This document shows, one piece after another, positions 7,900 to 54,462 of a stretch of 64,000 nucleotides of DNA. The notes under the pieces were generated by a model. The model was not told where the DNA came from. It worked only from the letters and a program-made list of their open reading frames with translations, and did no database searches. Source of the DNA: an uncultured Candidatus Binatia bacterium (GTDB lineage Bacteria; Desulfobacterota; Binatia; Bin18). The translations under genes were made by a program, and so were the position numbers. Each line of letters opens with the position of its first letter. The first letter of the stretch is position 1. The stretch spans positions 466,869 through 530,868 of the forward strand of contig OZ242288.1 in assembly GCA_965207575.1 (NCBI GenBank), written 5' to 3'.

Positions 7900-8469
7900 A
7901 TGCCACATCCACTTGAACACGAATATGACCTAACAGCAGAGGAATTACTCGATGCCATCAATCGCCGATTTCGAGCAAAGGTCACTCTGGAAGGAGCCGT
8001 AGCGGAGGTTCATCTCGGAAAAAAGCTCAAGGCGTTGTGTGACGCGGGAATCCTGCATGACTTTGAAGAGCACGACTCAGATGGCTGCCCCGATTACACT
8101 ATCTGGTTACCGGGCGATGGCTCTGGGCAGCTCATTGAGTGCAAGAACATCCGGGATGCAGATGAAGCGTACAGAAAAGGCGGTGTTGATGTCGCCTACA
8201 AGGTTGAAACCCAAAAGACTCGCACCTCGAACAATGATCCAAGCTCCCGTTTTTATAATAACGACCATTTCGCCATTCTCGCCGTTTGCATGGGTAAAAA
8301 GACTCATAGATGGACTGACTTCATGTTTATTCGCTCTCGGCATCTTACGAGACACACCAAGTATCCTCACAAGCTTGCTGTCATGCACCGGGTGCCATTG
8401 CCGGATTCCAATTTTGGCCCTCCGTGGTATAGTTCTCTGAACGTCCTTCTTGAGAATGAGCCGCGATGA
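7900..8469 (+). CDS. Putative Type II restriction endonuclease (PD-(D/E)XK)
   Basis: Contains [22 protein letters not shown], which gives a PD ... E-C-K motif. Its stop overlaps the start of the methyltransferase (ATGA at 8466-8469). Confidence 0.6.
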
Positions 8470-9413
8470 AGAAGCATTACAAAACACCCCTTGGTACGGC
8501 TTACTGTTCTGATGCAATAGACACTCTTTCTGGTCTGAAGGATGATTCTGTTGACCTCGTTGTCACATCGCCCCCTTACGCTCTCCATTTCAAGAAGGAA
8601 TATGGGAATGCCGATCAAGACAGTTACATTGATTGGATAAGCCCGTTCTGTGAGCAGATCAGACGAATTTTGAAGCCAGAGGGAAGTTTTGCCTTAAACA
8701 TTGGTGGGGCATGGACGCCCGGAAGCCCGACTCGCTCTCTGTATCATTTCCGGCTTCTTCTGCATCTGTGCGATAATCTCGGGTTCAAACTGTGCCAGGA
8801 GTTCTTCTGGTATAATCCAGCCAAGATGCCGGCGCCTGCCGAATGGGTCAACGTCCGTCGGATTCGAGTCAAGGATTCTGTTGAATACATTTATTGGTTA
8901 GGGAAGACGGACTTCCCTAAAGCGTGTAACGCGGATGTTTTGCAGCCGTACTCCAAGGACATGCTACGGCTCATCAAGCGTGGCGTATCTGCAACCCGTC
9001 GCCCATCAGGGCATATCATTAAAAAAAGTTTTGCCGACCATAAAGGGGGCTCGATTCCGCCCAACCTCATTCGATGCGGCAACAATGAAAGTAACAGTGC
9101 CTATCTGAATGGATTGAAGGCGGCTGGGAGAAAGATTCATCCTGCCAGATTTCCCGCTGAACTCCCTCGATTTTTTATTAACTTCTGCACTGACCCTAAC
9201 GATTTGGTTCTTGACCCATTCGCTGGATCAAACACAACCGGCATGGTCGCCGAGGAACTTGACAGGCGCTGGATATCGATTGAGAAGAATGAAGAATACT
9301 GGGAGGATTCAAAACTCAGATTTTTCCAAGAAGAACAGGTTGCTGGCGAAAAGGGCGAGGATACGCAAACACAGTTCCGTTTATTGGAAGCATCTCCACC
9401 ATACGGAAAATAA
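8466..9413 (+). CDS. DNA methyltransferase, N4/N6 (beta-class order, motif IV before motif I)
   Basis: Contains [13 protein letters not shown] (motif IV) and later [34 protein letters not shown] (motif I). The S-P-P-Y form hints at m4C, but this is not decisive. Confidence 0.9.
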
Positions 9414-9427
9414 GGATACCTTCTTGT

Positions 9428-10252
9428 ATGAAGAGGTATCGAATTATTACTCTCGACTTTGATTCGCGAGCGAAAATCCTGAAAGAGGAAATAAAAGAGG
9501 ATTGGGAACCAAAAGTTAAAGAACTCTGGAGGAAGAACAAAATTCAGATTCAAGAAGGTCTACTCTCCGAGTATGGCCCATATGAAGGTTTCGAGAAAAT
9601 AAAAAATTTTGTTGAACTGGATGCTGCACCGTGGTCAATTATCTCCTTCCACAACAAATTCTTAGGACAATTACGTAGCGCGTTTGTCATCGGTGCTTAC
9701 TACCCTGCCTTAACAGCTACATGTGCATTAGGGGAACGGATTTTAAATCAACTAATACACAGCTTGCGCGACGATTACTCCTCAACACCCGAGTATAAAA
9801 AAGTCTATCGGAAAGATTCTTTCGATAATTGGGAACTCGCTATCGAAACCTTGATGAACTGGGATGTCCTCCTTCCCAATGTCGCAGAAGCATTCTGAGA
9901 ATTGATGCGCCTCCGTCACCATTCTTTGCATTTTAATCCCGAAACAGAAGACAATGACCGGAGCATTGCTTTGGATGCGATTCGAAAGTTATCGATGATC
10001 ATCGAGGGGCAATTTTCAGGTATTGGAGCTAAGCCTTGGTATATCCCAGGGACAATGGGTGCAACCTTTGTCAAGAAGTCTTATGAAGCATGTCCTTTTG
10101 TTAGAAAGATTATTCTTCCCAACTGCTGTCTCGTTGGACACCTCCATACATTGGAAATTAAAGATGACATCTGGCGAGTTCATGACGAACACGAATATGA
10201 GGAGAAGGAAATAACTGACGAGGAATTCGTGGAGCTATTCAATAATAGGTAA
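9428..10252 (+). pseudogene. Single reading frame split by an in-frame TGA (9896-9898); HEPN-like hypothetical protein co-oriented with the R-M pair
   Basis: Track ORFs 9428..9898 and 9902..10252 are in the same frame (both 2 mod 3). RLRHHSLH (R-x4-H) begins 3 codons after the stop. The ORF starts 15 nt downstream of the methyltransferase. Confidence 0.4.
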
Positions 10253-36945: not shown

Positions 36946-39744
36946 ATGCGCCTGTCCTGGAATGAAATCCGTGTCCGCGCCGCCGCGTTTGCCGAAGAGT
37001 GGCGGGACGCAGCCTATGAGAAAGGCGAGACGCAGAGCTTCTATAACGACTTCTTCCATATCTTCGGTGTCAGGCGACGCACTGTTGCGCGCTATGAGGA
37101 GCATGTCAGGAAGCTAGACAATCGTTCCGGCTTCATCGACCTGTTCTGGCCCGGTGTCCTCCTGGTCGAACAAAAGAGCGCTGGCCGCGACCTGACCAAA
37201 GCATACGGACAAGCCGGTGACTACTTCGACGCCCTGTCCGAGCAAGACCGCCCGCGCTATATCCTGGTCAGCGACTTTCAGACCTTTGAGTTACATGACC
37301 TGGACGAGCGGGAACGCACGTTTTTCGCTCTGGCCGACCTGCCCCACAACGTCGAGAAGTTCGGCTTTATCCTGGGCGTACAAAAACGCACCTTCAAGGA
37401 TCAGGACCCGGTCAACATTCAGGCGTCCGAACTCATGGGCGACCTGCACGACGCGCTCCAACAGTCCGGTTACACCGGCCACGACCTCGAGCGCTTTCTC
37501 GTCCGTACCGTGTTCTGCTTGTTTGCCGACGATACCGGCATCTTCGAGCCACGCGACATCTTTCTTGATTTCCTGGAAACGCGCACCCGTGAAGACGGCT
37601 CAGACCTGGGCTTATGGCTCTCGCGGCTCTTTCAAGTGCTCGATACACCTGAAGATAAGCGTCAAAAGGCTCTGGACGAGGACTTGGCTCGCTTTCCGTA
37701 TGTGAACGGCGACCTGTTCCGCGGTCCGCTACGCATTCCCGACTTTGACGCTCCCATGCGGCAGGCATTGCTCGACGCCTGCCGGTTCGACTGGACCGCC
37801 ATCTCTCCGGCAATCTTTGGCGCACTGTTCCAATCAGTCATGAACCCTGGGCAGCGCCGCTCTCAGGGCGCGCACTACACCACCGAGCAGAACATCCTGA
37901 AGGTCATCGAGCCGCTGTTTCTGGATGACCTGCGAGCAGAGTTTGCTCGGCTGAAAGCCCGCAAGGACACACATCGACGGCTGGAACTGCGTCGCTTTCA
38001 GCGGCGCTTAGGGACGCTCCGCTTTCTCGATCCGGCCTGCGGCTGCGGTAATTTTCTCATCATTGCCTACCGCGAGTTGCGCGCCTTGGAGATTGAGGTC
38101 TTGAAGGAACTGCGCGCCTATCAAGATGACACGGAAACCGGGGAGTTCAACGTTGCAACCTTCTTGTCGGTCGTCAATGTAGACCAATTCTACGGTATTG
38201 AAATCGGGGAGTTCCCGACCCATATCGCCGAGACCGCGTTGTGGATGATGGACCACATCATGAACAACCAGCTCAGTCTGGAGTTCGGTCAAACCTTCGT
38301 GCGTATCCCGCTGACCCACTCGCCCCATATTCTGAATGCTGACGCCCTGGAAACCGGCTGGGCCAGCCTGCTGCCACCGGAGGAATGCTCGTATGTGTTC
38401 GGCAATCCGCCGTTTGTCGGCGCGAAATTTCAGAGCCGAGAGCAACGGGCGCAAGTCCGCAGTCTAGCTGGCCTGGGCGGTAGCGGAGGGACCCTGGATT
38501 ACGTCGCCGCCTGGCTCCTCAAGGCGGGAGCATATGTTACGGAGCAGACTCGTATCGGCTTTGTAGCAACCAACTCAACGACACAGGGCGAACAGGTCGG
38601 CCAGTTGTGGCCCCTGCTGTTTGACCGCTACCGGTTGGAGCTGTCCTTTGCCCATCGCACCTTTGCGTGGGGATCGGATGCACGCGGCAAGGCGCACGTG
38701 CATGTCGTCATTCTCGGGTTGGACCGGCGGGAGAATGCGAGGACAGAGAAACGCCTGTTTTCCTACTCCGATCTCAACGGCGACCCGGAGGAAACCCGCC
38801 ACACTGTGCTTTCACCCTATCTGTTCGACGCCAGCGGCTTGGCCGACTCACATCAAATTGTTCGAGAGGAGAATGAACCCGTCAATGGAATGCGTAGACT
38901 AAAGACCGGCGTTCAGATGATTGACAATGGTATTCTGACATTCAGTGAGGAAGAAAAAGAAGCCTTTCTTGCGGATGAGCCCTCCGCGTCCAGATTCTTC
39001 CGGCGGTACATTGGAGGCGGCGAATTTATCAACGACTTCCACCGTTGGATACTGTATCTTCGAGAAGCTAACCCAACTGATTTGAAGTCGTTACCAATGG
39101 TTGCGGGTAAGGTCACAGAAGTTCGTGCATATCGGGCAGCAAGTGCTCGTGCGAGTACGCGGCGGATGGCCAACTATCCTACCTTGGTTGGTGTAGATGA
39201 ACGGCTTAATGCTGATTATCTAGTTATTCCGAATACGAGTTCAGAGCGGCGCGAATATGTCCCAATTGGATGGTTGACGCCTGACGTGATTGCAAATCAG
39301 AAATTACGGATTCTTCCCGATGCCACCCTTACCGAGTTTGCCCTTCTCACTTCTGCCATGCACATGGCGTGGATGCGTACCGTGACCGGGCGCATGAAAA
39401 GCGACTATATGTATTCTGTCGGTGTCGTCTACAACACCTTCCCCACACCGCTCGAAAGCGCAGACCTGTCAAAGCTGGAACTGCTGGCCCAAGCCGTGCT
39501 CGACGCCCGCGCGGCCCACTCCGGTGCAACCCTGGCCGACCTGTACGACCCCGACCTGATGCCGCCCAACCTGCGCAAGGCCCACACCACCCTTGACCGC
39601 GCCGTAGACCGTCTCTACCGCCGTGGCGGCTTTACCTCGGAGCGCGAGCGGGTGGAGCACCTGTTTGGGTTGTATGAGAAAATGACTGCGCCGTTGGCGG
39701 TGAAGCCAACACCGAAGAGGAGACGGCGGCGCAATACATCCTAA
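36946..39744 (+). CDS. MmeI-family Type IIG (Type IIL) restriction-modification enzyme
   Basis: It is co-linear with MmeI as I remember it: LSWNEIR ... FIDLFWPGVLLVEQKS (D ... E-x-K nuclease) ... DGSDLGLWLSRLFQVL ... FPYVNGDLF ... AISPAIFGALFQS ... GAHYTTE ... FLDPACGCGNFL ... FGNPPFVG ... TNSTTQGEQV ... SERREYVPIGW. Confidence 0.9.
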   Translation: MRLSWNEIRVRAAAFAEEWRDAAYEKGETQSFYNDFFHIFGVRRRTVARYEEHVRKLDNRSGFIDLFWPGVLLVEQKSAGRDLTKAYGQAGDYFDALSEQDRPRYILVSDFQTFELHDLDERERTFFALADLPHNVEKFGFILGVQKRTFKDQDPVNIQASELMGDLHDALQQSGYTGHDLERFLVRTVFCLFADDTGIFEPRDIFLDFLETRTREDGSDLGLWLSRLFQVLDTPEDKRQKALDEDLARFPYVNGDLFRGPLRIPDFDAPMRQALLDACRFDWTAISPAIFGALFQSVMNPGQRRSQGAHYTTEQNILKVIEPLFLDDLRAEFARLKARKDTHRRLELRRFQRRLGTLRFLDPACGCGNFLIIAYRELRALEIEVLKELRAYQDDTETGEFNVATFLSVVNVDQFYGIEIGEFPTHIAETALWMMDHIMNNQLSLEFGQTFVRIPLTHSPHILNADALETGWASLLPPEECSYVFGNPPFVGAKFQSREQRAQVRSLAGLGGSGGTLDYVAAWLLKAGAYVTEQTRIGFVATNSTTQGEQVGQLWPLLFDRYRLELSFAHRTFAWGSDARGKAHVHVVILGLDRRENARTEKRLFSYSDLNGDPEETRHTVLSPYLFDASGLADSHQIVREENEPVNGMRRLKTGVQMIDNGILTFSEEEKEAFLADEPSASRFFRRYIGGGEFINDFHRWILYLREANPTDLKSLPMVAGKVTEVRAYRAASARASTRRMANYPTLVGVDERLNADYLVIPNTSSERREYVPIGWLTPDVIANQKLRILPDATLTEFALLTSAMHMAWMRTVTGRMKSDYMYSVGVVYNTFPTPLESADLSKLELLAQAVLDARAAHSGATLADLYDPDLMPPNLRKAHTTLDRAVDRLYRRGGFTSERERVEHLFGLYEKMTAPLAVKPTPKRRRRRNTS
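37034..37664. repeat. Direct repeat copy 1 (partner 42651-43258, roughly 95% identical by eye, with a 24-bp indel)
   Basis: Direct comparison of the two DNA stretches. Confidence 0.9.
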
Positions 39745-39815
39745 CTGTTGAGCAAAAAATTTGGGCGCTATAGTGCACTACCCAACAGGCGGGGCTACGA
39801 TTAACAGAGGCAGGC

Positions 39816-40967
39816 ATGAGCAGGCGGAATAAGGGCAGCAAGAACTGGCGAGAGACCCTTCGCAGGAGTCTTGAACCATCCGGGGGTGGGGGACTCACCA
39901 CGCACGGAGCCAAGGTTGGGGCAGAGCCCTTAGGCGGTAGGCCCGCAGAATGCACGATCACCGGACACTGCCGGACATTTGTGTTCAAATTTCCCGGTTC
40001 CTATCTGGCCGCGGAGGAACCCGTCAATCATCAGGTCATCTACTCGCACGGGAGTTTCAAGGCGTCAATCGTGTCAGACCTCCTGGCTTACTTCGAGCAG
40101 GATCCGGCCGAGTCGCTCCACTACTCCATCGACGTGTCCTTGCGTGTCGGTGTCCGCAGCACCTACGAGAAGACCGTCGAACAATCCAACAGGCAGCCTC
40201 ACTCGGAAGTGCCGCTCTTCGTCGTGATAGAGGAGCACATGGAAGTCCCTCCAACGGTGTTGAGCAGTGGCGAATGCTTCACAATCGACGAATGCCGCGA
40301 CGACGATGCCTTGATAGAGGGGGGCAGGGAAGGCGAGAGGGTCTTGCTTGCCTTTCGTACGATCGACGGTTCGTGGCCCGACTTCCACGCCGACATGTCC
40401 GTCGTGAACGTGGTGCTGGCAGCCGTAAAGGTGGAGCAAAACGTCACCAGTCATATCGAAAAGCTCTACAACTGCTCCTGTTTCGTCAGCAGCGAAGGAC
40501 AAGCTGTTTATACTATAATCCCAACCCTCGGTGCCACGCACGGAGAGTCGAGATCTCGCCTTGCACCGCCAGACCTCAGGGAAAAGGTGAACAGGATCAG
40601 GTCTATGCTTCAAGGAATGATGGCGGATTCGGAGCCGGTGGCGGCGGAACTATTCGACTCGATCCTGTTGGACAAGACAAAGGACGATGGCTACTTGCGG
40701 CTCTGGTATCTGCGGCTCTGGCAGGCGCTTGACGATGCGAAGAGATATCTGGGGTACCGCCAACTCGATAATCTCAACACGGTGATCGCAGGTGAAAGGA
40801 CACCGGCAGAACTCAGGGAGTATCGGCGCGACATAGCCCATTGGTATACGGGCAAGATAGACTATTCGTATCTGAGCGACCTCCAGCACACAGTGATGGA
40901 ACTGCTCCGCAGGAAGTACCGCCCGACCAAAGATGGCGAATCGGACCGATCCGAACGGCACCGGTAG
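39816..40967 (+). CDS. Hypothetical protein with a helical C-terminal region carrying an Rx4H (HEPN-like) motif
   Basis: It lies 72 nt downstream of the MmeI-like gene on the same strand. The C-terminus reads YLRLWYLRLWQALDDAKRYLGY ... LREYRRDIAHWYTGKIDY. I do not recognise the N-terminal ~240 aa. Confidence 0.55.
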   Translation: MSRRNKGSKNWRETLRRSLEPSGGGGLTTHGAKVGAEPLGGRPAECTITGHCRTFVFKFPGSYLAAEEPVNHQVIYSHGSFKASIVSDLLAYFEQDPAESLHYSIDVSLRVGVRSTYEKTVEQSNRQPHSEVPLFVVIEEHMEVPPTVLSSGECFTIDECRDDDALIEGGREGERVLLAFRTIDGSWPDFHADMSVVNVVLAAVKVEQNVTSHIEKLYNCSCFVSSEGQAVYTIIPTLGATHGESRSRLAPPDLREKVNRIRSMLQGMMADSEPVAAELFDSILLDKTKDDGYLRLWYLRLWQALDDAKRYLGYRQLDNLNTVIAGERTPAELREYRRDIAHWYTGKIDYSYLSDLQHTVMELLRRKYRPTKDGESDRSERHR

Positions 40968-41224: not shown

Positions 41225-41512
41225 TCAGTAGTCGGCGTGGCCGGGCGCGAGCAGGGTAATTGAGGTGGGCTGGAGGTGGGTGCGCACGGTGGGAGTGGGG
41301 CTCTGGTCCAGGGCAAGTACGACCCGTCTCATTTCTCCAGCCGTCAGGTTTCGCTGCAATTCCAGAAAAATCTGGAGCGGCATGTAAATCTGAAGGTCTG
41401 GGAGTTTGTCGAAAAGCAGGGTTTCGCAGGCAGGATAGGTGGGCTCTTTGCGCAGAGCAAAAATCCACACATTTGTATCTATAGCGACCGCCTCATCCCG
41501 GATAGAGGTCAC
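41225..41512 (-). pseudogene. PIN-domain toxin gene, only the N-terminal ~70 aa PIN-like
   Basis: AVAIDTNVWIFALRKE ... LQIFLELQRN is PIN-like. After about residue 70 the reading changes character and continues past the TGA, in the same frame, into an unrelated Cys-rich fragment. Confidence 0.5.
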
Positions 41513-41786
41513 GAGCGATCTGCTCCCGAAGGTCGCTGAGCTCTTGTCTCACAGCGTCGGCAGACTGGGACAGCTTCCCCTCTCGTACCAAGCGAGCACG
41601 GTAGTCTTGGGAAACCTGTTCCAGTATTTCCCGGGTGCTGGCATGGCTATCCAGCCCTTCGACAATCAAGCTGTCCAGGAGGTCTTCAACAGGACGATGT
41701 TCCATACGCGCGGCTTGTTGTATCTGCTCATACCTGTCTTTTGACAGCCGCAGAGTCACTTCCACTGTTTGGTCGCCGCTGCTCAT
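41493..41786 (-). CDS. Ribbon-helix-helix (CopG-like) antitoxin
   Basis: AAGGAG lies before the ATG at 41786. It reads VEVTLRLSKDRYEQIQQAARMEHRPVEDLLDSLIVEGL and its 3' end overlaps the PIN gene start. Confidence 0.6.
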   Translation of the reverse strand: MSSGDQTVEVTLRLSKDRYEQIQQAARMEHRPVEDLLDSLIVEGLDSHASTREILEQVSQDYRARLVREGKLSQSADAVRQELSDLREQIARDLYPG

Positions 41787-41961
41787 GGGACACTCCTTTA
41801 GATAGTAAGAGTCTCGCGCACACTTTTTCTCCATGATTGAGAAGTGAGGATACTGAGCACATCAAAAGCCGTCAAGCTGAATTGTCTTTGGGTACTGTCC
41901 TAATTAGGGCAACAACATACTTGCGTAACCAATCATAATTAGACCGTTCGGATTCAAGAGT

Positions 41962-42582
41962 TTATTGATTGAGGGGGATTAACTCGCCTCGCTGTTCGGG
42001 CCAACAGCCGTCCTGAGCAACCAGATACCGCCAGGTGGGAATATGCACCCCTTCTTGCTCAGGCCGACCGATCAAGAAGAGATATTCTGCTTTTGACACT
42101 CCTGGCCGTTGTACATCGATCTCTCTACCCATCTGAAACATTGTGGTCAGCTCCTGAGTGAGCCACTGCCGATGATTGGGATTGGGGTCGTATGCGGGCC
42201 AATCATAGAAAATCAGCACTTTTAACGACACAGGCCACATGAGCAGTTTGTACATTTCTTCTTCGGGATTATTCCCGTTTTCGTGTTCGATACACACCTC
42301 AAGACGGGCTGGATGGCCATACCTTTCCCCTAGACCAGGAACGGGGTTATTGGTCGGATCGAAATAAATGGCATCTAGAAGATACCATCCTCTGCGACCT
42401 ATTCTTACGTCCCTTTGCAAGCGCGTTGCTAAACGGTGTAGGAACGCATCGTCCGCTGTCAGCATCCACTCTGTCCACAGTGGGGCTTGTGGGTAGGCAT
42501 TCACAATTTCCTGTTGCCTGTCCTCCAAGTCATCATTCCACTGGCCAAGAAAGGCTTCACGAAAACGGCGTGCAGAAACCAT
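41962..42582 (-). CDS. Hypothetical protein with a possible nuclease-like acidic motif
   Basis: 206 aa. It contains YLLDAIYF ... RLEVCIEHEN ... KVLIFY, a D ... E-x-E arrangement that loosely resembles PD-(D/E)XK folds. I recognised no family. Confidence 0.5.
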   Translation of the reverse strand: MVSARRFREAFLGQWNDDLEDRQQEIVNAYPQAPLWTEWMLTADDAFLHRLATRLQRDVRIGRRGWYLLDAIYFDPTNNPVPGLGERYGHPARLEVCIEHENGNNPEEEMYKLLMWPVSLKVLIFYDWPAYDPNPNHRQWLTQELTTMFQMGREIDVQRPGVSKAEYLFLIGRPEQEGVHIPTWRYLVAQDGCWPEQRGELIPLNQ

Positions 42583-42634: not shown

Positions 42635-43312
42635 GTGACAAGGCGGTTTGAGAGCTTCTACAACGACTTCTTCAATACCTTCGGTGTCAAGCGGCGCAGC
42701 GTTGCGCGCTATGAGGAGCATGTCAGGAAGCTAGACAATCGTTCCGGCTTCATCGACCTGTTCTGGCCCGGCGTCCTCCTGGTTGAGCAAAAAAGTGCTG
42801 GCCGTGACCTGACTAAAGCCTACGGACAAGCCGGCGACTACTTCGACGCCCTGCCCGAGCAAGACCGCCCGCGCTATATCCTGGTCAGCGACTTCCAGAC
42901 CTTTGAACTGTATGGTTTGGACGAGTGGGAATACACGTTTTTTGCTCTGGCCGACCTACCTCAGCAGGTGGAGAAGTTCGGCTTTTTCAAGGATCAGGAC
43001 CCGGTCAACATTCAGGCGTCCGAACTCATGGGCGACCTGCACGACGCGCTCCAACAGTCCGGTTACACCGGCCACGACCTCGAGCGCTTTCTCGTCCGTA
43101 CCGTGTTCTGCTTGTTTGCCGACGATACCGGCATCTTCGAGCCACGCGACATCTTTCTTGATTTCCTGGAAACGCGCACCCGTGAGGACGGCTCAGACCT
43201 GGGCTTATGGCTCTCACGGCTCTTTCAAGTGCTCAATATGCCGGAGGACACACGTCAACGAAGACCTAGGGCCAGACCCGCTGCTTTACGGAGGGCAATC
43301 AGCTTTATTTGA
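42635..43312 (+). pseudogene. Truncated duplicate of the MmeI-family nuclease/N-terminal region
   Basis: It is near-identical to residues ~30-240 of 36946..39744 and retains FIDLFWPGVLLVEQKS. It lacks the first ~30 codons and all methylase/TRD parts, and it diverges after ...RLFQVLNMPED. Confidence 0.85.
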
Positions 43313-43351: not shown

Positions 43352-43678
43352 CTACAACAACGACTCAAAAACACGGATCAGCCGGGGCAGCTCTCCATCC
43401 CGGGCCTCATTGACCATTTGGTCCAGCTTCCGACGGAGTTGGGCCGGCCGGTATCCTTCCTCCGGGTGATACTGAAACAATTCGGATAGCGGAACCTCCA
43501 GACCTGCGGAAAGACGCTCAAGCAGGGCCAGCGTCGGATTCGCCTCTCCCCGCTCAATGACAGCCAGATAATTGGCACTGATATCGATGATTTCCGCCAG
43601 CCCTTCCTGGGTATGGCCCTTTGATCTTCGCAGGCTTTTGATCCGCTTTCCCAACAGTTTTCGGTCGTCCATAACCAC
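43352..43678 (-). CDS. XRE-family helix-turn-helix regulator
   Basis: Contains LGKRIKSLRRSKGHTQEGLAEIIDISANYLAVIERGEANPTLALLERLSAGLEVPLSELF. Confidence 0.85.
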   Translation of the reverse strand: MVMDDRKLLGKRIKSLRRSKGHTQEGLAEIIDISANYLAVIERGEANPTLALLERLSAGLEVPLSELFQYHPEEGYRPAQLRRKLDQMVNEARDGELPRLIRVFESLL

Positions 43679-43802
43679 CTCGCCTCAAAGGCAGTATGAA
43701 TATGCCACCATGCTGAATGAATTAGCTGACAGATATAGATTGTCAACAAACTACATCCGTCATGTGGCAGTAAAATGCCTTAGCTATTCTGTTCGGTCGG
43801 CT

Positions 43803-44048
43803 TCATCCCCAATACCGTTGGTCAACGACGCGTTGCGAATACAACGCAGCGGTAAACTCGGCGAGGTCAGCGGGTGTCCACGTCACATAGCGACGCAAAC
43901 GGGTACGCCGAGTCTCCAGGTCCACCGCGTCTCGTAGGAGGGCCAGGACAGTGCGGTTCAGACTCTCTCCCCGTTCCTCGCTAATGGCGCGAAGCCGGCG
44001 TGAAAGTTCGGCATCGACATTCCGAAGCGTCATCTGTGTGACCGCCAT
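43803..44048 (-). CDS. RHH (FitA/VapB-like) antitoxin with no adjacent toxin gene
   Basis: MTLRNVDAELSRRLRAISEERGESLNRTVLALL parallels 54656..54898 (MTIRNVPAELASALDAERRRRGLSLNRTVLSLM). Confidence 0.6.
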   Translation of the reverse strand: MAVTQMTLRNVDAELSRRLRAISEERGESLNRTVLALLRDAVDLETRRTRLRRYVTWTPADLAEFTAALYSQRVVDQRYWG

Positions 44049-44082
44049 ACTGCCCCCCGCATAGCGTTATGACCGCATGAGG

Positions 44083-45087
44083 TCAAGAATGGGTCAGGGT
44101 CAGTTTGAGCAGCAGGGTGGCGGCTGGCACCGAGGTGTAATAGGTACCGAGATATTTTGCTTCGTGCAGCAGCCAGTGATAGATGCGCCCCATCAGGTCG
44201 TGGCGTAAGGCGGCCTGTTGTTCGCAAATGGCCTTCGCCTGCGTTAGTACTGCTGTCACTGCCCGCGTGGTGCTGAGCGCACTCGGCAGTTCATCCAGCA
44301 CGTGCTCACCAAGCTGGAAAATCGGCACATAGTTGATGTTTTCCCATATCCAGTGCCAATGCTTCGCAATAGCACCAACTAAATCGGTTTCCTTTTCCAT
44401 TTTGCGGAGCGGGGTGATACGGCCATCCGTTATCGCTAACTGTTCTTGAAAAATCAGTGCGTTAGCCAGCACCAGGGCCGAGACCTTGGCAGCCGTCTCA
44501 CGCCGGCCTTGGGCTTTGTCCGGCGTCTCACCTTTGGGTGGGGTGATCCCGAGAATTGTTGACAGCCGATCACACGCCCCTGTTTAGCCCAGCCAGAGTT
44601 GCGTCACGCTGACTAGGCGGCCATGCAGTGCTTTGGCTGTCCGCTCAACGATATCATCTTGACTCAGCGCTTCTTGCGCCCGGCGCAGGGCTTCCATCAA
44701 CGCCGCCGGATTCCCCTCGAACCATTCATCGCCCTCGGAGGTCTCGGTCATAATGCAGTAGCGCAGCCGCGCCCCGGTCAGTGCATTAAGCATCTCGGTG
44801 GTAGGCGTCGTGCGAAGCGGCTCGGGATAGACGGTTGCTGCTGCAATGTGGGCAATCCCGGCCCGGACGCGCTTGCGGGCGTCGTTCAGGACGATCTGTT
44901 CAGCGTTCGGTACGTCGGTAAACTTGCCTTCGATGACGGCCCGCAGACCACGCAACTGAAACAGCACGTCTGGCCGGTGCCTGCCGTGCAGGTGAATAGT
45001 TTCCGCATTGGCGGTGACGCCGAGCTTTGAGATCAACACGGCCAGTTGCGTATTGACGACTTCTTCACGATTGCGCGGCTTGGGCAT
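44083..45087 (-). pseudogene. Decayed nuclease-methyltransferase (Type IIG-like) gene: in-frame TAA and 3' truncation
   Basis: The PD-ExK motif reads HRPDVLFQLRGLRAVIEGKF. Track ORFs 44584..45267 and 44083..44472 share one frame and are separated only by TAA 44584-44586. The distal part has RHDLMGRIYHWLLHEAKYLGTYYTSVPAATLL, which resembles the region before motif I of gamma-class N6A methylases. No catalytic methylase motifs follow. Confidence 0.55.
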
Positions 45088-50502: not shown

Positions 50503-51237
50503 CTACTCCGATTCGGACAAGTTCAACCCTATGGGATTAGATTGGATTATGTCCAATGCTATTTTTATGCGAGTCGCAACGCTTATTCCAGCAGGAGTGT
50601 CGACTTTGAATCCTGTAGGAGTCTTCCCAACTATCCTCCCCTCCTCTCCGTATACAGGAGCATAGACATCACTTATCAGGTTTATGTTCCCACTCATGAC
50701 TCCAATCAAGGTCCACTCATTGTCATTTTCCACTAGAATGGGACTGCCTGAAAAACCTGGATTAGATATAGTATCAAGTATTATTCTCTCATCGTCTCCA
50801 TTGTACCCTGCTACAACCGTTTTCTTAGCTAGAGGAGGAGCTACATATTTATTTCCAACCTTCATCTTAGACTGAAAATTAGTGGAAGTGGGAAGGGGAA
50901 AACCTGCAACAAGAGCATCCTCACCCATCCTAAAAGATCCGACAGGAATACTGAAATTTGATATACGATACTCGGGAGATAGGACTGCAATATCAGCATC
51001 GCCGTCTGACCGCCCTACAATAACTACTCCAAGTTTGCGGAATGCTAATACATCACGACCGTCGTCAGGCCATTCGCTTATCCTGATTCCTATCTCATCC
51101 TTATCTTGAAGTCCTTCGACGCAATGTCTTGCAGTCACAAGGTATTGACGGCCATCAACATCAAAGGAAAATCCCGTGCAATAAGTGTCGCCAATCTTTA
51201 GTAGGAATGTGCTGTAGATTATGACGTGGGTTAGCAT
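50503..51237 (-). CDS. Trypsin-like (S1/chymotrypsin-fold) serine protease, no signal peptide
   Basis: Candidate catalytic triad: LVTARHCVEG (His), DIAVLSP (Asp) and NPGFSGSPIL (Ser). The N-terminus enters the protease fold directly. Confidence 0.8.
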   Translation of the reverse strand: MLTHVIIYSTFLLKIGDTYCTGFSFDVDGRQYLVTARHCVEGLQDKDEIGIRISEWPDDGRDVLAFRKLGVVIVGRSDGDADIAVLSPEYRISNFSIPVGSFRMGEDALVAGFPLPTSTNFQSKMKVGNKYVAPPLAKKTVVAGYNGDDERIILDTISNPGFSGSPILVENDNEWTLIGVMSGNINLISDVYAPVYGEEGRIVGKTPTGFKVDTPAGISVATRIKIALDIIQSNPIGLNLSESE

Positions 51238-51393: not shown

Positions 51394-54300
51394 CTAACTA
51401 GAAAACTCCTCCGGCAGCCCTCGCACTATCTCCACTGTTTCCAGGCTGACGCGCACGACTTGGCCGACGAGGCGGACGATGTATTCTTCGTCGTCGGGGC
51501 GGTTGGGATCGGAGCGGATGCGGCTGCGTTTGTCGGTCTTGATGCGGTATTGATCGATGACCCATTCCAGGGCGCTACGGTTGCCGAGCCGATAGGCGAA
51601 TACGTCCGGGGGAATCCCGGCCAGGGTGAGCGAGTCGTTGACGATAAGGGCGGTCTTGTCTTTGCTGAGCTTCATACGGTCTACGCGGTACGACAATGGC
51701 ACGTCGGCCGATTCGATCCATTGCAGCTCATACGGCTCAAGGGTTTCGTATTCGAGATGCAGCCGGGCAAGCTGCTTGCCGGCGGAGGTAAACGCCTGAA
51801 AGTCCGGGGCAAACGGAATGCGTGGCAGCTCACGTCTCAGATTGTCGGCGAACTTTTCCCGGTAGCTAGGATGGTGAAGAAGCCCGTACACGTAATAGAA
51901 AATATCCCACTTTGTGATGTTCGGATTGTGGTAATAGTCTTGGAACTGTTTGAGTGACCAGTTGGTGATGTTTTCGCGCTTGTTACTTCCCTCTTGGCTG
52001 TACATATAAAAAGGGAAGGCTTGTGCAGCAGCCCCGGCTCCCACAAGGTGCAGGTCTAAGAGCTGATTACTAACCAATGCCATAAAGGGCTTCTCGGAAG
52101 CTATTCCCGTGAGACATATGACCCTGTTCTCTTCCTCCGTGACAGGATTTGGGAAAATCCGAGGCAATACGTATCTGCGCTCATTCATTACAGAGTCGAA
52201 GAATACGAACCGTTTAATAAACGGGCGGTAGAGCGCATTTCTGATTTTTGCCTTGTTAAACTCAGCATAAACATCACGCGCCACTGTGTTCTTGAGTCCC
52301 TCGCTCCACTTTATCTTTGTTTCATCGCTGTCTACGAAGCTATCTATGTCTTTGGGACGACCGACTCTTTTCCAGCGATCAACTTCACTGTTATAGGCTT
52401 CAATGCACTGTCTAGCTTTATCGGCTAGCTGCTCCTCGTCAAAGCAATATACCCACGCATCCCGGTTGGTCTTTACGCCGAGGGAGAAAATCTTGAAAAT
52501 TGTCTCTTCATTTATTCCCTTGTTCGCCCTCGTTTCCCGGCTCCCGATGGGAAGTAGCGCCCGGAAATCGTCAGCATATTCAGGAACGATCCAAGTGTGA
52601 TTGTCATCAGGCTGTAAGGTCTGCCATTCCATCGCCGCAACATTCTGCTTCTCTGCCAACCAAGACAGCTTTTCTTCCCTACGCCAGTCTTCGGGAACAC
52701 GGTGGTAGAGCAAGGAACGGGTCGCGTGTTGCGCTTTGCGAACGGCAACCGTGATTCCAACACCAACCTGAATACCAAACACATTATGAGTCGTACCGCT
52801 CAGCTTGGGGTTTTTGCGAACGTTGCCGTGCAGGTCAATATGATGAATCTTCGTGAAATCCTGCAAAAGGTTTTTCCGCATTCCGTCAAAGGCGGTCTGG
52901 TCTGTAAAGCTGTTATTGGTCACAAAGCATACAATCCCGTCTCGCCCTTCCAAGCGGTCTACCGCCCAACGAAAAAACTTTACATAAGCGTCGGACAGCG
53001 CGTTGACATTGCTCGCCGTGGAATCTTTGGCATACGTCGCCCGGATTTGCTTCTCGATAACCTTATACTTCCGATTCTTATTATTGTCGTTCTCGTTAAT
53101 CTGCCCCACGTTGTAGGGTGGGTTGCCGATGATAACCGTAATGGGTGCGGTTTTTTGGCGCTCTACCCGTGCGGTGTTCTCCTCGGTCATAAAGGCAAAT
53201 TGTTGCTCGCTGCCCTCTGCCAGTTCGAGCGTATCCACGAAGCATAGGCCGTCGAACCGTTCATACGCGCCGGTGCGTTCGTAATAGGCGTGCTCGATGT
53301 TGAGGGCGGCAATGTAGTACGGCAGCAGCATGACTTCGTTGGCGAACAACTGCTCGGTGTACATGCGTTTCAGGGCACGCTTGGGAATACGACGCAGCAG
53401 GTTCACAATGAAGTTTCCGGTTCCCGTGCAGGGATCAAGAATGTGCACGCTTGTGTCGCTGAGGGTCTTGCCGAACTCGTCTTGCAACACCTGCTCTACG
53501 CTCGCACACATGAAATCCACAATCTCCTGCGGCGTGTAGACAATGCCGAGCGTGTCGGCGGCCTTGACTGAGTAGCCCTGAAAGAAACGCTCGTAGACGG
53601 CGTTCAGGAAGTGCTGTTTCTCGCTGAAATTCTCGATGGTTTGGGCCGCTGACTCGATAGCCAGATAAAAGGTGTCGAGGGATTTGAGAAATTCGTGCCG
53701 GTTAAAGGCTTTGCTGACCAGCGCGTCAATAACCTTTTCCACCTCACGCGCAATCACGTTGCGGCGAATGAAATCCTGGCTGTCGAAGATCGTCCGAATC
53801 AGCCGCTCGGTCAAAAGGTGCTGCACCAGCATTTCATCAACTGCGGCCTCACTCAGGTTGGGGTTCAGTGACTCCCGACACAAAGTAAAGAAGCTCTTAA
53901 ATGCCTTCTGAAACGCCGTGTTGGTAGCGTGGGCGTCCTGAATGATCTGCACCAGGCCGCGTGCCAGGTCGGGCACCCGCTGCTTGAAATCTGCCACCGC
54001 GCTGCTGAAGTCCTCGTGGGCGGGTTCGGTGTAGGAAAAGAAGGTGATAAGCAGGTTGGTGAGTTGGACGCGCTGGGTCAGGTCGGCCTGCATGGCAACC
54101 TGCCCGTTCTGGTACAGGTAAGCGCGTTGGGTGTCTTCAAAGATGATGTTGGTGAGTGGGTAGCCTTTGTCGATTTTCTTCTGGATTTCGGCCTCAAGGT
54201 TGTCGTCGGTGTCCTTGGCCTCCCAGTAACCACGATTCAGGAAGTACTCATCCCGAAACGTTCCATCGGGCCGAATGGAACCGCTTGCCAATTCTGGAAT

Positions 54301-54462
54301 AAGCGTCCAGCCAGTCCGCCTACCTGTCTCGGCCAACAGGTTCTGAAATGCGGACCGTAGCGCCCCCTCGTGCGTGACGCCCTGTTTCTCGTACGCTTCG
54401 AGAGCGGCGTAGTAGTCGGTGAGGTCCTTTGATTTTGGTTTGACAGCGAGAACGGCGGGCAT
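51394..54462 (-). CDS. Type IIG / type ISP-like restriction-modification enzyme (nuclease-like N-terminus, N6A methylase and C-terminal specificity domain; no helicase motor)
   Basis: Contains IRPDGTFRDEYFLNRGYWEAKD (D ... E-x-K), ILDPCTGTGNF (motif I) and VIIGNPPYNVGQ (motif IV). The C-terminal YRLGNRSALEWVIDQY ... IRSDPN resembles type ISP C-terminal domains. Confidence 0.85.
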   Translation of the reverse strand: MPAVLAVKPKSKDLTDYYAALEAYEKQGVTHEGALRSAFQNLLAETGRRTGWTLIPELASGSIRPDGTFRDEYFLNRGYWEAKDTDDNLEAEIQKKIDKGYPLTNIIFEDTQRAYLYQNGQVAMQADLTQRVQLTNLLITFFSYTEPAHEDFSSAVADFKQRVPDLARGLVQIIQDAHATNTAFQKAFKSFFTLCRESLNPNLSEAAVDEMLVQHLLTERLIRTIFDSQDFIRRNVIAREVEKVIDALVSKAFNRHEFLKSLDTFYLAIESAAQTIENFSEKQHFLNAVYERFFQGYSVKAADTLGIVYTPQEIVDFMCASVEQVLQDEFGKTLSDTSVHILDPCTGTGNFIVNLLRRIPKRALKRMYTEQLFANEVMLLPYYIAALNIEHAYYERTGAYERFDGLCFVDTLELAEGSEQQFAFMTEENTARVERQKTAPITVIIGNPPYNVGQINENDNNKNRKYKVIEKQIRATYAKDSTASNVNALSDAYVKFFRWAVDRLEGRDGIVCFVTNNSFTDQTAFDGMRKNLLQDFTKIHHIDLHGNVRKNPKLSGTTHNVFGIQVGVGITVAVRKAQHATRSLLYHRVPEDWRREEKLSWLAEKQNVAAMEWQTLQPDDNHTWIVPEYADDFRALLPIGSRETRANKGINEETIFKIFSLGVKTNRDAWVYCFDEEQLADKARQCIEAYNSEVDRWKRVGRPKDIDSFVDSDETKIKWSEGLKNTVARDVYAEFNKAKIRNALYRPFIKRFVFFDSVMNERRYVLPRIFPNPVTEEENRVICLTGIASEKPFMALVSNQLLDLHLVGAGAAAQAFPFYMYSQEGSNKRENITNWSLKQFQDYYHNPNITKWDIFYYVYGLLHHPSYREKFADNLRRELPRIPFAPDFQAFTSAGKQLARLHLEYETLEPYELQWIESADVPLSYRVDRMKLSKDKTALIVNDSLTLAGIPPDVFAYRLGNRSALEWVIDQYRIKTDKRSRIRSDPNRPDDEEYIVRLVGQVVRVSLETVEIVRGLPEEFSS

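Follow-up and report, generated by a model that had tools for sequence, protein, structure and literature searches.

An unannotated protein family with a predicted C-terminal HEPN-like domain, encoded downstream of an MmeI-family Type IIG enzyme in Candidatus Binatia

What does the gene that follows an MmeI-family enzyme in an uncultured Candidatus Binatia bacterium encode, and do the two genes belong together as a defence module? The locus lies in a stretch of 64,000 nucleotides of contig OZ242288.1 (positions 466,869 to 530,868; hereafter, the window) and consists of an open reading frame (ORF) of 932 amino acids (aa), here called MmeI, and a downstream ORF of 383 aa, here called gene X, with its product referred to as X. 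An initial annotation had taken the pair for a Type IIG restriction-modification (R-M) enzyme coupled to an abortive-infection (Abi) effector, X being noted for a helical C-terminus with the R-x4-H motif of HEPN RNases. The proposal was followed up by homologue searches, profile and structure comparisons and an analysis of genomic contexts. Judging from sequence and structural models, X is probably an abortive-infection effector of the HEPN type whose N-terminal domain is novel.

Gene X and its predicted HEPN-like domain

A direct search with the full-length protein gave no match to any Pfam, PADLOC or NCBIfam model. Homologues of X were nevertheless found in a set of 5.8 billion proteins, where 230 were detected, nearly all of them 365–390 aa long, full-length and without a name or a Pfam domain. 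An exhaustive HMMER scan of representatives clustered at 50% identity yielded a family of 186 clusters. The nearest genome matches came from Candidatus Binatia metagenome-assembled genomes, and a locus search restricted to closer alignments returned six metagenome loci and no viral locus. The ratio of non-synonymous to synonymous substitution rates (dN/dS), calculated against sister loci, was 0.12–0.45 for X vs. 0.16–0.20 for MmeI. X is therefore under purifying selection, evolving faster than its neighbour, and it represents a real, conserved gene family.

The AlphaFold2 (AF2) model of full-length X (predicted local distance difference test, pLDDT, 89.9; predicted template modelling score, pTM, 0.89) comprised an N-terminal α/β domain and a C-terminal helical domain. 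As the initial annotation had described, the last ~130 aa are helical and contain R-x4-H: helices were predicted at residues 251–270, 274–283, 291–308, 330–341 and 350–368, with loops at 309–329 and 342–349, and the motif, R337-x4-H342, falls within residues 333–344 (LREYRRDIAHWY). When the C-terminal domain was modelled in isolation, the same helices were obtained (pLDDT 91.4).

A bare R-x4-H motif is worthless on its own because one or more turn up in 69% of shuffled versions of X. That of X is meaningful because it is invariant throughout the family: beyond Met1, the only invariant residues among 42 full-length members, down to 20% identity, were R337, A341 and H342. The residue right after the motif arginine was polar N, D or H in 36 of these 42 (N in 22, D in 10 and H in 4), the window copy carrying R in its place. 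Further, position 291 was D or E in 40/42, usually D rather than E, and position 295 was R in 37/42.

HEPN domains are characterized by Rx4-6H, with N, D or H as the usual next residue, and by an acidic residue in helix 2, typically within Ex3[KR]; their fold is a four-helix up-down bundle that has an insert separating helices 2 and 3, in which the motif lies at helix 3's end and runs into the loop before helix 4 (PMC3710099). In the models of X, R337–H342 closes the third long helix and leads into the loop toward the last helix, D291-x3-R295 opens the second long helix, and an insert of 21 residues (309–329) separates long helices 2 and 3. By its sequence, D291-x3-R295 is the counterpart of the HEPN helix-2 acidic motif. 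All four sequence and topology features of HEPN domains are present in the predicted structure of X, the topology being read only from the order of secondary-structure elements.

We then considered profile matches among relatives of X. In Pfam searches with 40 C-terminal domains, 20 sub-threshold member-matches to five HEPN families were recorded (HEPN_MAE_28990, 8 of 40; HEPN_RiboL-PSP, 7; HEPN_Cthe2314, 2; HEPN_Swt1, 2; HEPN_DZIP3, 1). The best, to HEPN_Cthe2314, was obtained with one member at E 3.6e-4 and 21.0 bits vs. a gathering cutoff of 27.1. In the ten members checked individually, every HEPN match overlapped the HRNxIAH segment and lay at the motif-bearing end of the model. Eight of the 11 weak member-matches in PADLOC were likewise to HEPN-containing models (CARF_HEPN, Cas13-ApeA, RTasHEPN and Cas13a). 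A scan of the C-terminal domains against NCBIfam gave only noise, and a C-terminal profile run against the 5.8-billion-protein set retrieved nothing beyond fragments of the X family and gave no link to proteins annotated as HEPN. ApeA, AbiU2 and DUF4145, which the initial annotation had named as families for comparison, gave no Pfam match with the query or the 42 members, the weak matches pointing to MAE_28990, RiboL-PSP, Cthe_2314 and Swt1 instead. The HEPN assignment, tentative in the initial annotation, thus gains from the family-wide invariance of the motif, the topology and the sub-threshold matches, but not from any curated or Foldseek match. We consider it likely, on sequence and model grounds, that the C-terminal domain of X is a HEPN-like RNase domain.

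The N-terminal part of X, in which the initial annotation had recognized nothing, resembled no known family in our searches either: its ~245 aa matched no Pfam, PADLOC or NCBIfam family, no Pfam family recurred among the 42 members, none of which matched an ATPase or P-loop family, and Foldseek found no structural neighbour of the domain in PDB or BFVD. Conservation was concentrated in the near-invariant residues C46, T54, P60, C154, P188 and L201. The domain is presumed to be sensory, regulatory or autoinhibitory because of the analogy with other single-chain HEPN Abi proteins. A distant relative, P0195 (486 aa), combines the N-domain of X with a different, longer C-terminal helical region, which carries the R-x4-H segment KRSDVVHG and has no Pfam match, an arrangement suggesting that the N-domain could be combined with other HEPN-like effectors.

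Two further candidate assignments were set aside. A catalytic cysteine in the N-domain (conserved C46 and C154) was rejected for want of a conserved His or acid partner, and Foldseek matches of X to a flavin monooxygenase and to MavC were dismissed as noise (TM ~0.1).

The MmeI–X module and the genomic contexts of X

Both ORFs were recovered from the ORF listing on the plus strand with the coordinates of the initial annotation (Table 1); the spacer between them is 71 nt long, not 72 nt as first written. The assignment of the upstream gene to the MmeI family was well founded. The protein contains the five Pfam domains MmeI_N, MmeI_hel, MmeI_Mtase, MmeI_TRD and MmeI_C, all well beyond their thresholds (E 1e-78 to 1e-26), corresponding to a nuclease, a helical spacer, a gamma-class N6-adenine methylase, a target recognition domain (TRD) and a C-terminal domain, and it matched the PADLOC REase_MTase_IIG (Type IIG) model with 1145 bits across residues 2–916. 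D-x9-EQK (FIDLFWPGVLLVEQK), the nuclease motif, is visible in the translation, as are the methylase motifs DPACGCGNF and FGNPPF (NPPF), and we take D-x9-EQK, DPACGCGNF and NPPF to be the catalytic motifs of MmeI. The gene looks intact because its translation carries these motifs, both the PD-(D/E)xK nuclease motif and the NPPF/S-adenosylmethionine-binding methylase motifs being preserved, and it apparently encodes a complete five-domain enzyme. The TRD spans aa 635–835 and includes, at ~38870–39220, the sole stretch without a DNA-level counterpart in most sister loci.

Table 1. Coordinates of the features of the MmeI–X locus (window positions).
Feature	Coordinates	Strand	Basis
MmeI-family Type IIG R-M enzyme, 932 aa	36946..39744	+	Pfam, PADLOC, motifs
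MmeI–X spacer, 71 nt	39745..39815	+	Sequence; alignment of six loci; promoter/terminator scan; RNA fold
Gene X, 383 aa, member of an unannotated two-domain family of ~370 aa	39816..40967	+	Homologue search, AF2
N-terminal alpha/beta domain of X, aa ~40-250	39933..40565	+	AF2 secondary structure; conservation
C-terminal helical, HEPN-like domain of X (predicted), aa 251-368	40566..40919	+	AF2 models; weak recurrent profile matches
D291-G-Y-L-R295, [D/E]x3R motif opening helix 291-308	40686..40700	+	Family conservation; motif definition of PMC3710099
R337-R-D-I-A-H342, putative catalytic R-x4-H closing helix 330-341	40824..40841	+	Family conservation
92-nt tail 3' of the X stop, common to L001, L002, L003 and L020	40968..41059	+	blastn block boundaries
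Second MmeI copy, truncated to the nuclease and helical-spacer domains (225-aa ORF)	42635..43312	+	Pfam MmeI_N, MmeI_hel; tblastn, blastn

A GAGG sequence (39807–39810) precedes the ATG of X by 5 nt. Aligned across six loci, the spacer showed a mean column identity of 68% with long invariant runs; no consensus terminator or promoter was called in it by the promoter/terminator scan, and its RNA structure was not significant (fold z-score 0.06). The 92-nt tail, equally without significant RNA structure (z-score -0.57), is the 3' limit of the conserved block as defined by blastn. The DNA common to the sister loci extends from the ATG of MmeI to 92 nt beyond the X stop and holds no third gene, and only the MmeI TRD is replaced within it.

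Genomic contexts were compared in 18 distinct loci, the window included, with neighbourhoods taken as 7 kb around X. In eight of them, X directly follows a co-oriented MmeI-family gene that is intact, split or decayed. The two genes are paired in the window and in L003, L001 and L019, the latter three with spacers of 72–74 nt. In L020, MmeI is split into ORFs of 609 and 284 aa and X is intact; in L022, X is again intact, 7 nt from a split MmeI relative that is 26% identical to the window enzyme. L013 holds a three-gene cassette between MmeI and X, with an MmeI 3' remnant kept next to X, and in L002 both genes have decayed. Apart from these eight, L004 has an MmeI gene 5 kb off on the opposite strand. 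The pairs show at least four different flanks, which include, among others, a TonB-dependent receptor gene (in the window; also upstream in L013, though the DNA is dissimilar), tetratricopeptide repeat (TPR) and oxidoreductase genes, and a Gp49/helix-turn-helix (HTH) toxin–antitoxin (TA) pair with Cas3-Cse2. MmeI and X are, in summary, a compact, co-oriented two-gene module of 4.1 kb that moves between chromosomal sites in this clade.

In the other contexts, no MmeI gene was present within the 7-kb radius. In L012, X lies inside a Type I R-M operon (hsdM-AbiEi-AbiEii-hsdS-X-IS-hsdR, where IS denotes an insertion sequence). It adjoins Mrr and IS elements in L006, and ORF6N and GmrSD in L009, is found near GmrSD and an MNT/HEPN TA pair in L010, lies among integrases and DruA in L011, and adjoins a resolvase, an HNH gene, HigBA and a C5-methylase system in L021. 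The L023 copy is flanked by large unannotated genes, and its neighbourhood includes ATPase genes of the AAA_14/DUF4143 and AAA_15/21 types; the L015 copy belongs to a TrwB/TrwC conjugative element, where an HTH-M78 gene is its neighbour. CRISPR, TA, integrase and IS genes were further types of neighbours of X homologues. In line with the expectation that homologues would cluster near R-M or defence genes, R-M, other defence or mobile-element genes were found within 7 kb in all 15 homologue loci with long flanks; at several loci X occurred with no R-M gene in that distance. The coupling to R-M proposed by the initial annotation therefore stands as an association, with MmeI directly upstream in 8/18 loci, but not as an obligate one, about half of the sampled homologues being without MmeI within 7 kb; X is linked to R-M genes, though apparently not obligately.

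Several side observations concern the ends of the module. The spacer holds TTGAGC-N15-TATAGT and a short imperfect palindrome, CTGTTG...CAACAG; that these could serve as an internal promoter or operator for X is speculation, the spacing being atypical and the fold z-score ~0. MmeI remnants are found around X in L001 (11319–11455, just after X), in L013 (9629–9850, just before X) and in the window (42635–43312), and resemble the scars that recombination or cassette exchange would leave at the ends of the MmeI gene. The window fragment, which starts 1.7 kb downstream of X and shares 89% nucleotide identity with 37034–37665, is a remnant of another MmeI allele. The cassette of L013 (6368–9541) encodes a GmrSD_N/DUF262 protein, an AAA_15/AAA_21/DUF3696 ATPase and a 323-aa protein, and the MmeI 3' end is partly duplicated there; this is an example of a defence cassette inserted inside the MmeI–X module. 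Finally, an HTH_3 plus Peptidase_M78 gene (ImmA/IrrE-like, ~380–390 aa), together with a gene of ~170 aa, adjoins X downstream in L003 (8614–10260) and upstream in L015 (7875–9578), two loci that are otherwise unrelated.

Proposed mechanism, rival explanations and relation to known systems

The explanation that we favour, with moderate confidence, is that X is a self-contained effector, in which a novel alpha/beta N-domain exerts autonomous control over a C-terminal HEPN-type RNase, and that it acts with MmeI in a layered abortive-infection defence. As the first layer, MmeI would restrict unmodified incoming DNA, X being latent and probably restrained by its own N-terminal domain. Upon an infection cue, X would cleave RNA of the cell and/or the phage (tRNA, rRNA or mRNA); it would probably do so as a dimer in which two R-x4-H motifs come to lie side by side, in the manner of other HEPN RNases, with R337 and H342 as the putative catalytic dyad of a metal-independent enzyme. 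The resulting arrest of translation or growth would provide a second layer, of the abortive-infection type. Autonomous control by the N-domain is favoured over a PrrC-like model because X thrives without MmeI, with a Type I system and beside apparently broken MmeI genes.

Several results weigh against this explanation. The window copy of X itself gave zero matches to any HEPN model, no member of its family reached a curated HEPN threshold in the Pfam search of the 40 C-terminal domains, and the HEPN profile matches obtained were short and centred on the motif. X matched no PADLOC defence model. Sequence searches of PDB, performed with the single sequence and with a profile, returned only spurious matches to ribosomal protein L20 and one to an RNase H (E 0.78). 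The HEPN-like fold anticipated by the initial annotation was not recovered by structure search: Foldseek gave nothing significant, HEPN or otherwise, for the full model in PDB (best E 0.28) or BFVD and neither a HEPN protein nor any other significant match for the isolated C-terminal domain in PDB (best E 2.2), three-dimensional similarity to solved HEPN structures thus being undetected by this method. No function could be assigned to the N-domain through Pfam, PADLOC, NCBIfam or Foldseek, and homologues of X were absent from the viral contigs and PLSDB plasmids searched. Moreover, a functional link to MmeI is unproven, X being intact beside a split MmeI (L020, L022) and found without MmeI in many loci.

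One rival arrangement is a guard of the PrrC type, in which contact with MmeI holds X inactive until a phage anti-restriction factor that inhibits MmeI frees it, the two genes making up one obligate system in which MmeI would serve as first-line enzyme and 'antitoxin' at once. The precedent of PrrC–EcoprrI (PMC3710099) speaks for it, and so does the tight, conserved spacing (71–74 nt; 7 nt in L022) of co-oriented genes with no terminator detected between them. The pair also behaves as a mobile block of two genes, its flanks differing and a separate antitoxin gene being absent from it; both genes decayed jointly in L002, and the recurrence of the linkage with the 26%-identical MmeI relative of L022 keeps the model alive. 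An obligate pairing is, however, difficult to reconcile with the approximately half of the sampled homologues that lack MmeI within 7 kb (L006, L009, L010, L011, L012, L015, L021 and L023), with the three genes that separate MmeI from X in L013, and with an intact X beside the frameshifted or split MmeI of L020 and L022, though long-read assembly errors could explain the splits; X also lacks the ABC-ATPase regulatory domain of PrrC. We regard this guard arrangement as unlikely. Similarly doubtful is an integrated two-tier module, in which X would monitor the state of MmeI, or invading DNA or anti-restriction factors, via an unseen sensor fold and fire its RNase when restriction is subverted. 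If true, it would amount to a guard like PrrC with wholly different components and provide the first partner protein for the supposedly self-sufficient MmeI family.

Neighbourhoods rich in mobile elements, integrases, IS and a conjugative element, together with TA pairs beside X in the window and other loci, would also suit a toxin-like RNase that stabilizes a mobile MmeI cassette or island by post-segregational or stress-induced killing, and HEPN toxins are common in TA systems (PMC3710099). We consider such an addiction role very improbable: no conserved adjacent antitoxin gene, as in Type II TA systems of the HEPN/MNT-like kind, or other small partner accompanied X, the common block being MmeI and X only with neighbours that vary by locus; X occurs as a single gene in varied contexts; and its conserved 245-aa N-domain is more typical of sensor–effector Abi proteins than of minimal toxins. 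It is also improbable, in our view, that X is no nuclease and that its C-terminal bundle binds nucleic acid or protein, with R337 and H342 in a structural or binding role and X as an accessory or regulatory factor. The lack of a HEPN structural match and of an above-threshold HEPN profile match, the chance frequency of bare R-x4-H and the existence of inactive HEPN-like domains (PMC3710099) would be in line with this. Against it, no side chains other than R and H are invariant across a family whose extremes are ~20% identical, these two stand in the canonical RNxxAH context and fold position together with the helix-2 [D/E]x3R motif, and non-catalytic HEPN domains typically lose the motif (PMC3710099).

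HEPN genes linked to R-M systems are an established pattern, exemplified by PrrC/EcoprrI and by the R-M neighbourhoods of at least 16 HEPN clades (PMC3710099). The MmeI–X pair falls within this pattern and is not a new kind of system. Like PrrC, the HEPN anticodon nuclease of a Type Ic operon, X appears to be of HEPN type, is linked to R-M and would follow the logic of layered defence, and its homologue in L012 even sits inside an hsdM–hsdS–hsdR operon. In contrast to PrrC, which has an N-terminal ABC-ATPase and a Type I partner, X carries an unrelated alpha/beta N-domain and is paired here with a single-chain Type IIG enzyme, to which it is apparently not obligately linked. The predicted arrangement of an N-terminal domain and a C-terminal HEPN domain in one polypeptide, often solo or beside R-M genes in defence islands, recalls single-gene HEPN Abi proteins (ApeA, AbiJ, AbiU2 and DUF4145-like). 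X belongs to a different family, with no significant match to the Pfam or PADLOC models for these proteins; only a single member of its family matched the PADLOC Cas13-ApeA model (1.1e-4).

The Abi2/Swt1-like HEPN group (PF18737 HEPN_MAE_28990, PF18735 HEPN_RiboL-PSP, PF18730 HEPN_Cthe2314 and PF18731 HEPN_Swt1) is nearest to X. Shared features are an R-x4-H of the RNxxAH type that ends helix 3, with N, D or H after R in the family, the acidic-x3-basic motif in helix 2, the insert between helices 2 and 3, a domain of ~120 aa and a defence or R-M neighbourhood; further, these families gave the only recurrent, albeit weak, profile matches. X differs from them in that its family remains below the curated thresholds, the query itself is unmatched and there is no Foldseek similarity. 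The 245-aa N-domain is not among the HEPN-associated N-terminal domains described in Pfam. X is thus probably a new HEPN-effector family, outside every curated family, with an unclassified N-domain and a new type of R-M partner.

As for the partner, the window enzyme resembles MmeI in its full domain set and catalytic motifs and in a TRD that varies between sister loci, as is typical of the family. Unlike the self-sufficient MmeI enzymes described, it has a conserved downstream partner gene. In a full-text literature search, no paper connected MmeI with HEPN and no conserved downstream partner of MmeI was described.

If confirmed, X would add a HEPN effector family to the anti-phage genes missed by PADLOC, Pfam and NCBIfam, and MmeI-type enzymes, regarded as minimal stand-alone R-M systems, would be seen to travel with a dedicated second-line partner. 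The N-domain could reveal a new mechanism of infection sensing. The conceptual gain would be incremental because HEPN RNases riding with R-M systems have been familiar ever since PrrC and the HEPN survey of 2013. The module is small, hence easily cloned and tested, and we regard it as a moderately interesting candidate for experimental work.

A second HEPN-like locus and neighbouring genes

The initial annotation had pointed to a similar succession of R-M and HEPN-like genes at 7.9–10.25 kb, and this was essentially right. Positions 7900–10252 (plus strand) form an island of low GC content (44–50%) with a 189-aa ORF (putative restriction endonuclease), an N6_N4 DNA methylase gene (8466–9413) and then a HEPN-like gene of a ~276-aa family. 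This family has more than 1,500 homologues, is unannotated and shows the invariant consensus FRELKxIRNxSIHF. The window gene is a nonsense-mutated copy or contains a sequencing error because an in-frame TGA (9896–9898) replaces an arginine conserved in the family. An hhalign comparison of this family with the C-terminal domain of X was not significant, the motif alone being aligned.

Directly downstream of the MmeI–X module, on the minus strand (41225–41834), lie a ribbon-helix-helix (RHH) ORF and a short, PIN-like ORF of 95 aa with only weak Pfam matches, possibly a degraded TA pair of the VapBC type. They are followed by a 206-aa ORF (41962–42582, minus strand) with no match in Pfam, PADLOC or NCBIfam. 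Another possible TA-like cluster, in an apparent defence island, lies at 43352–44472 (minus strand), where an HTH_3 regulator of 108 aa and a FitA-like RHH antitoxin of 81 aa are accompanied by an adjacent ORF of 129 aa that has no match in Pfam. Further downstream, a Type ISP-like protein of 1022 aa (51394–54462, minus strand) has a coupler domain, an N6 methylase domain and a Type_ISP_C specificity domain. Neither a nuclease nor a helicase domain was detected, and the protein is possibly truncated or split. The gene adjoining it (50503–51237) encodes a trypsin-like peptidase.

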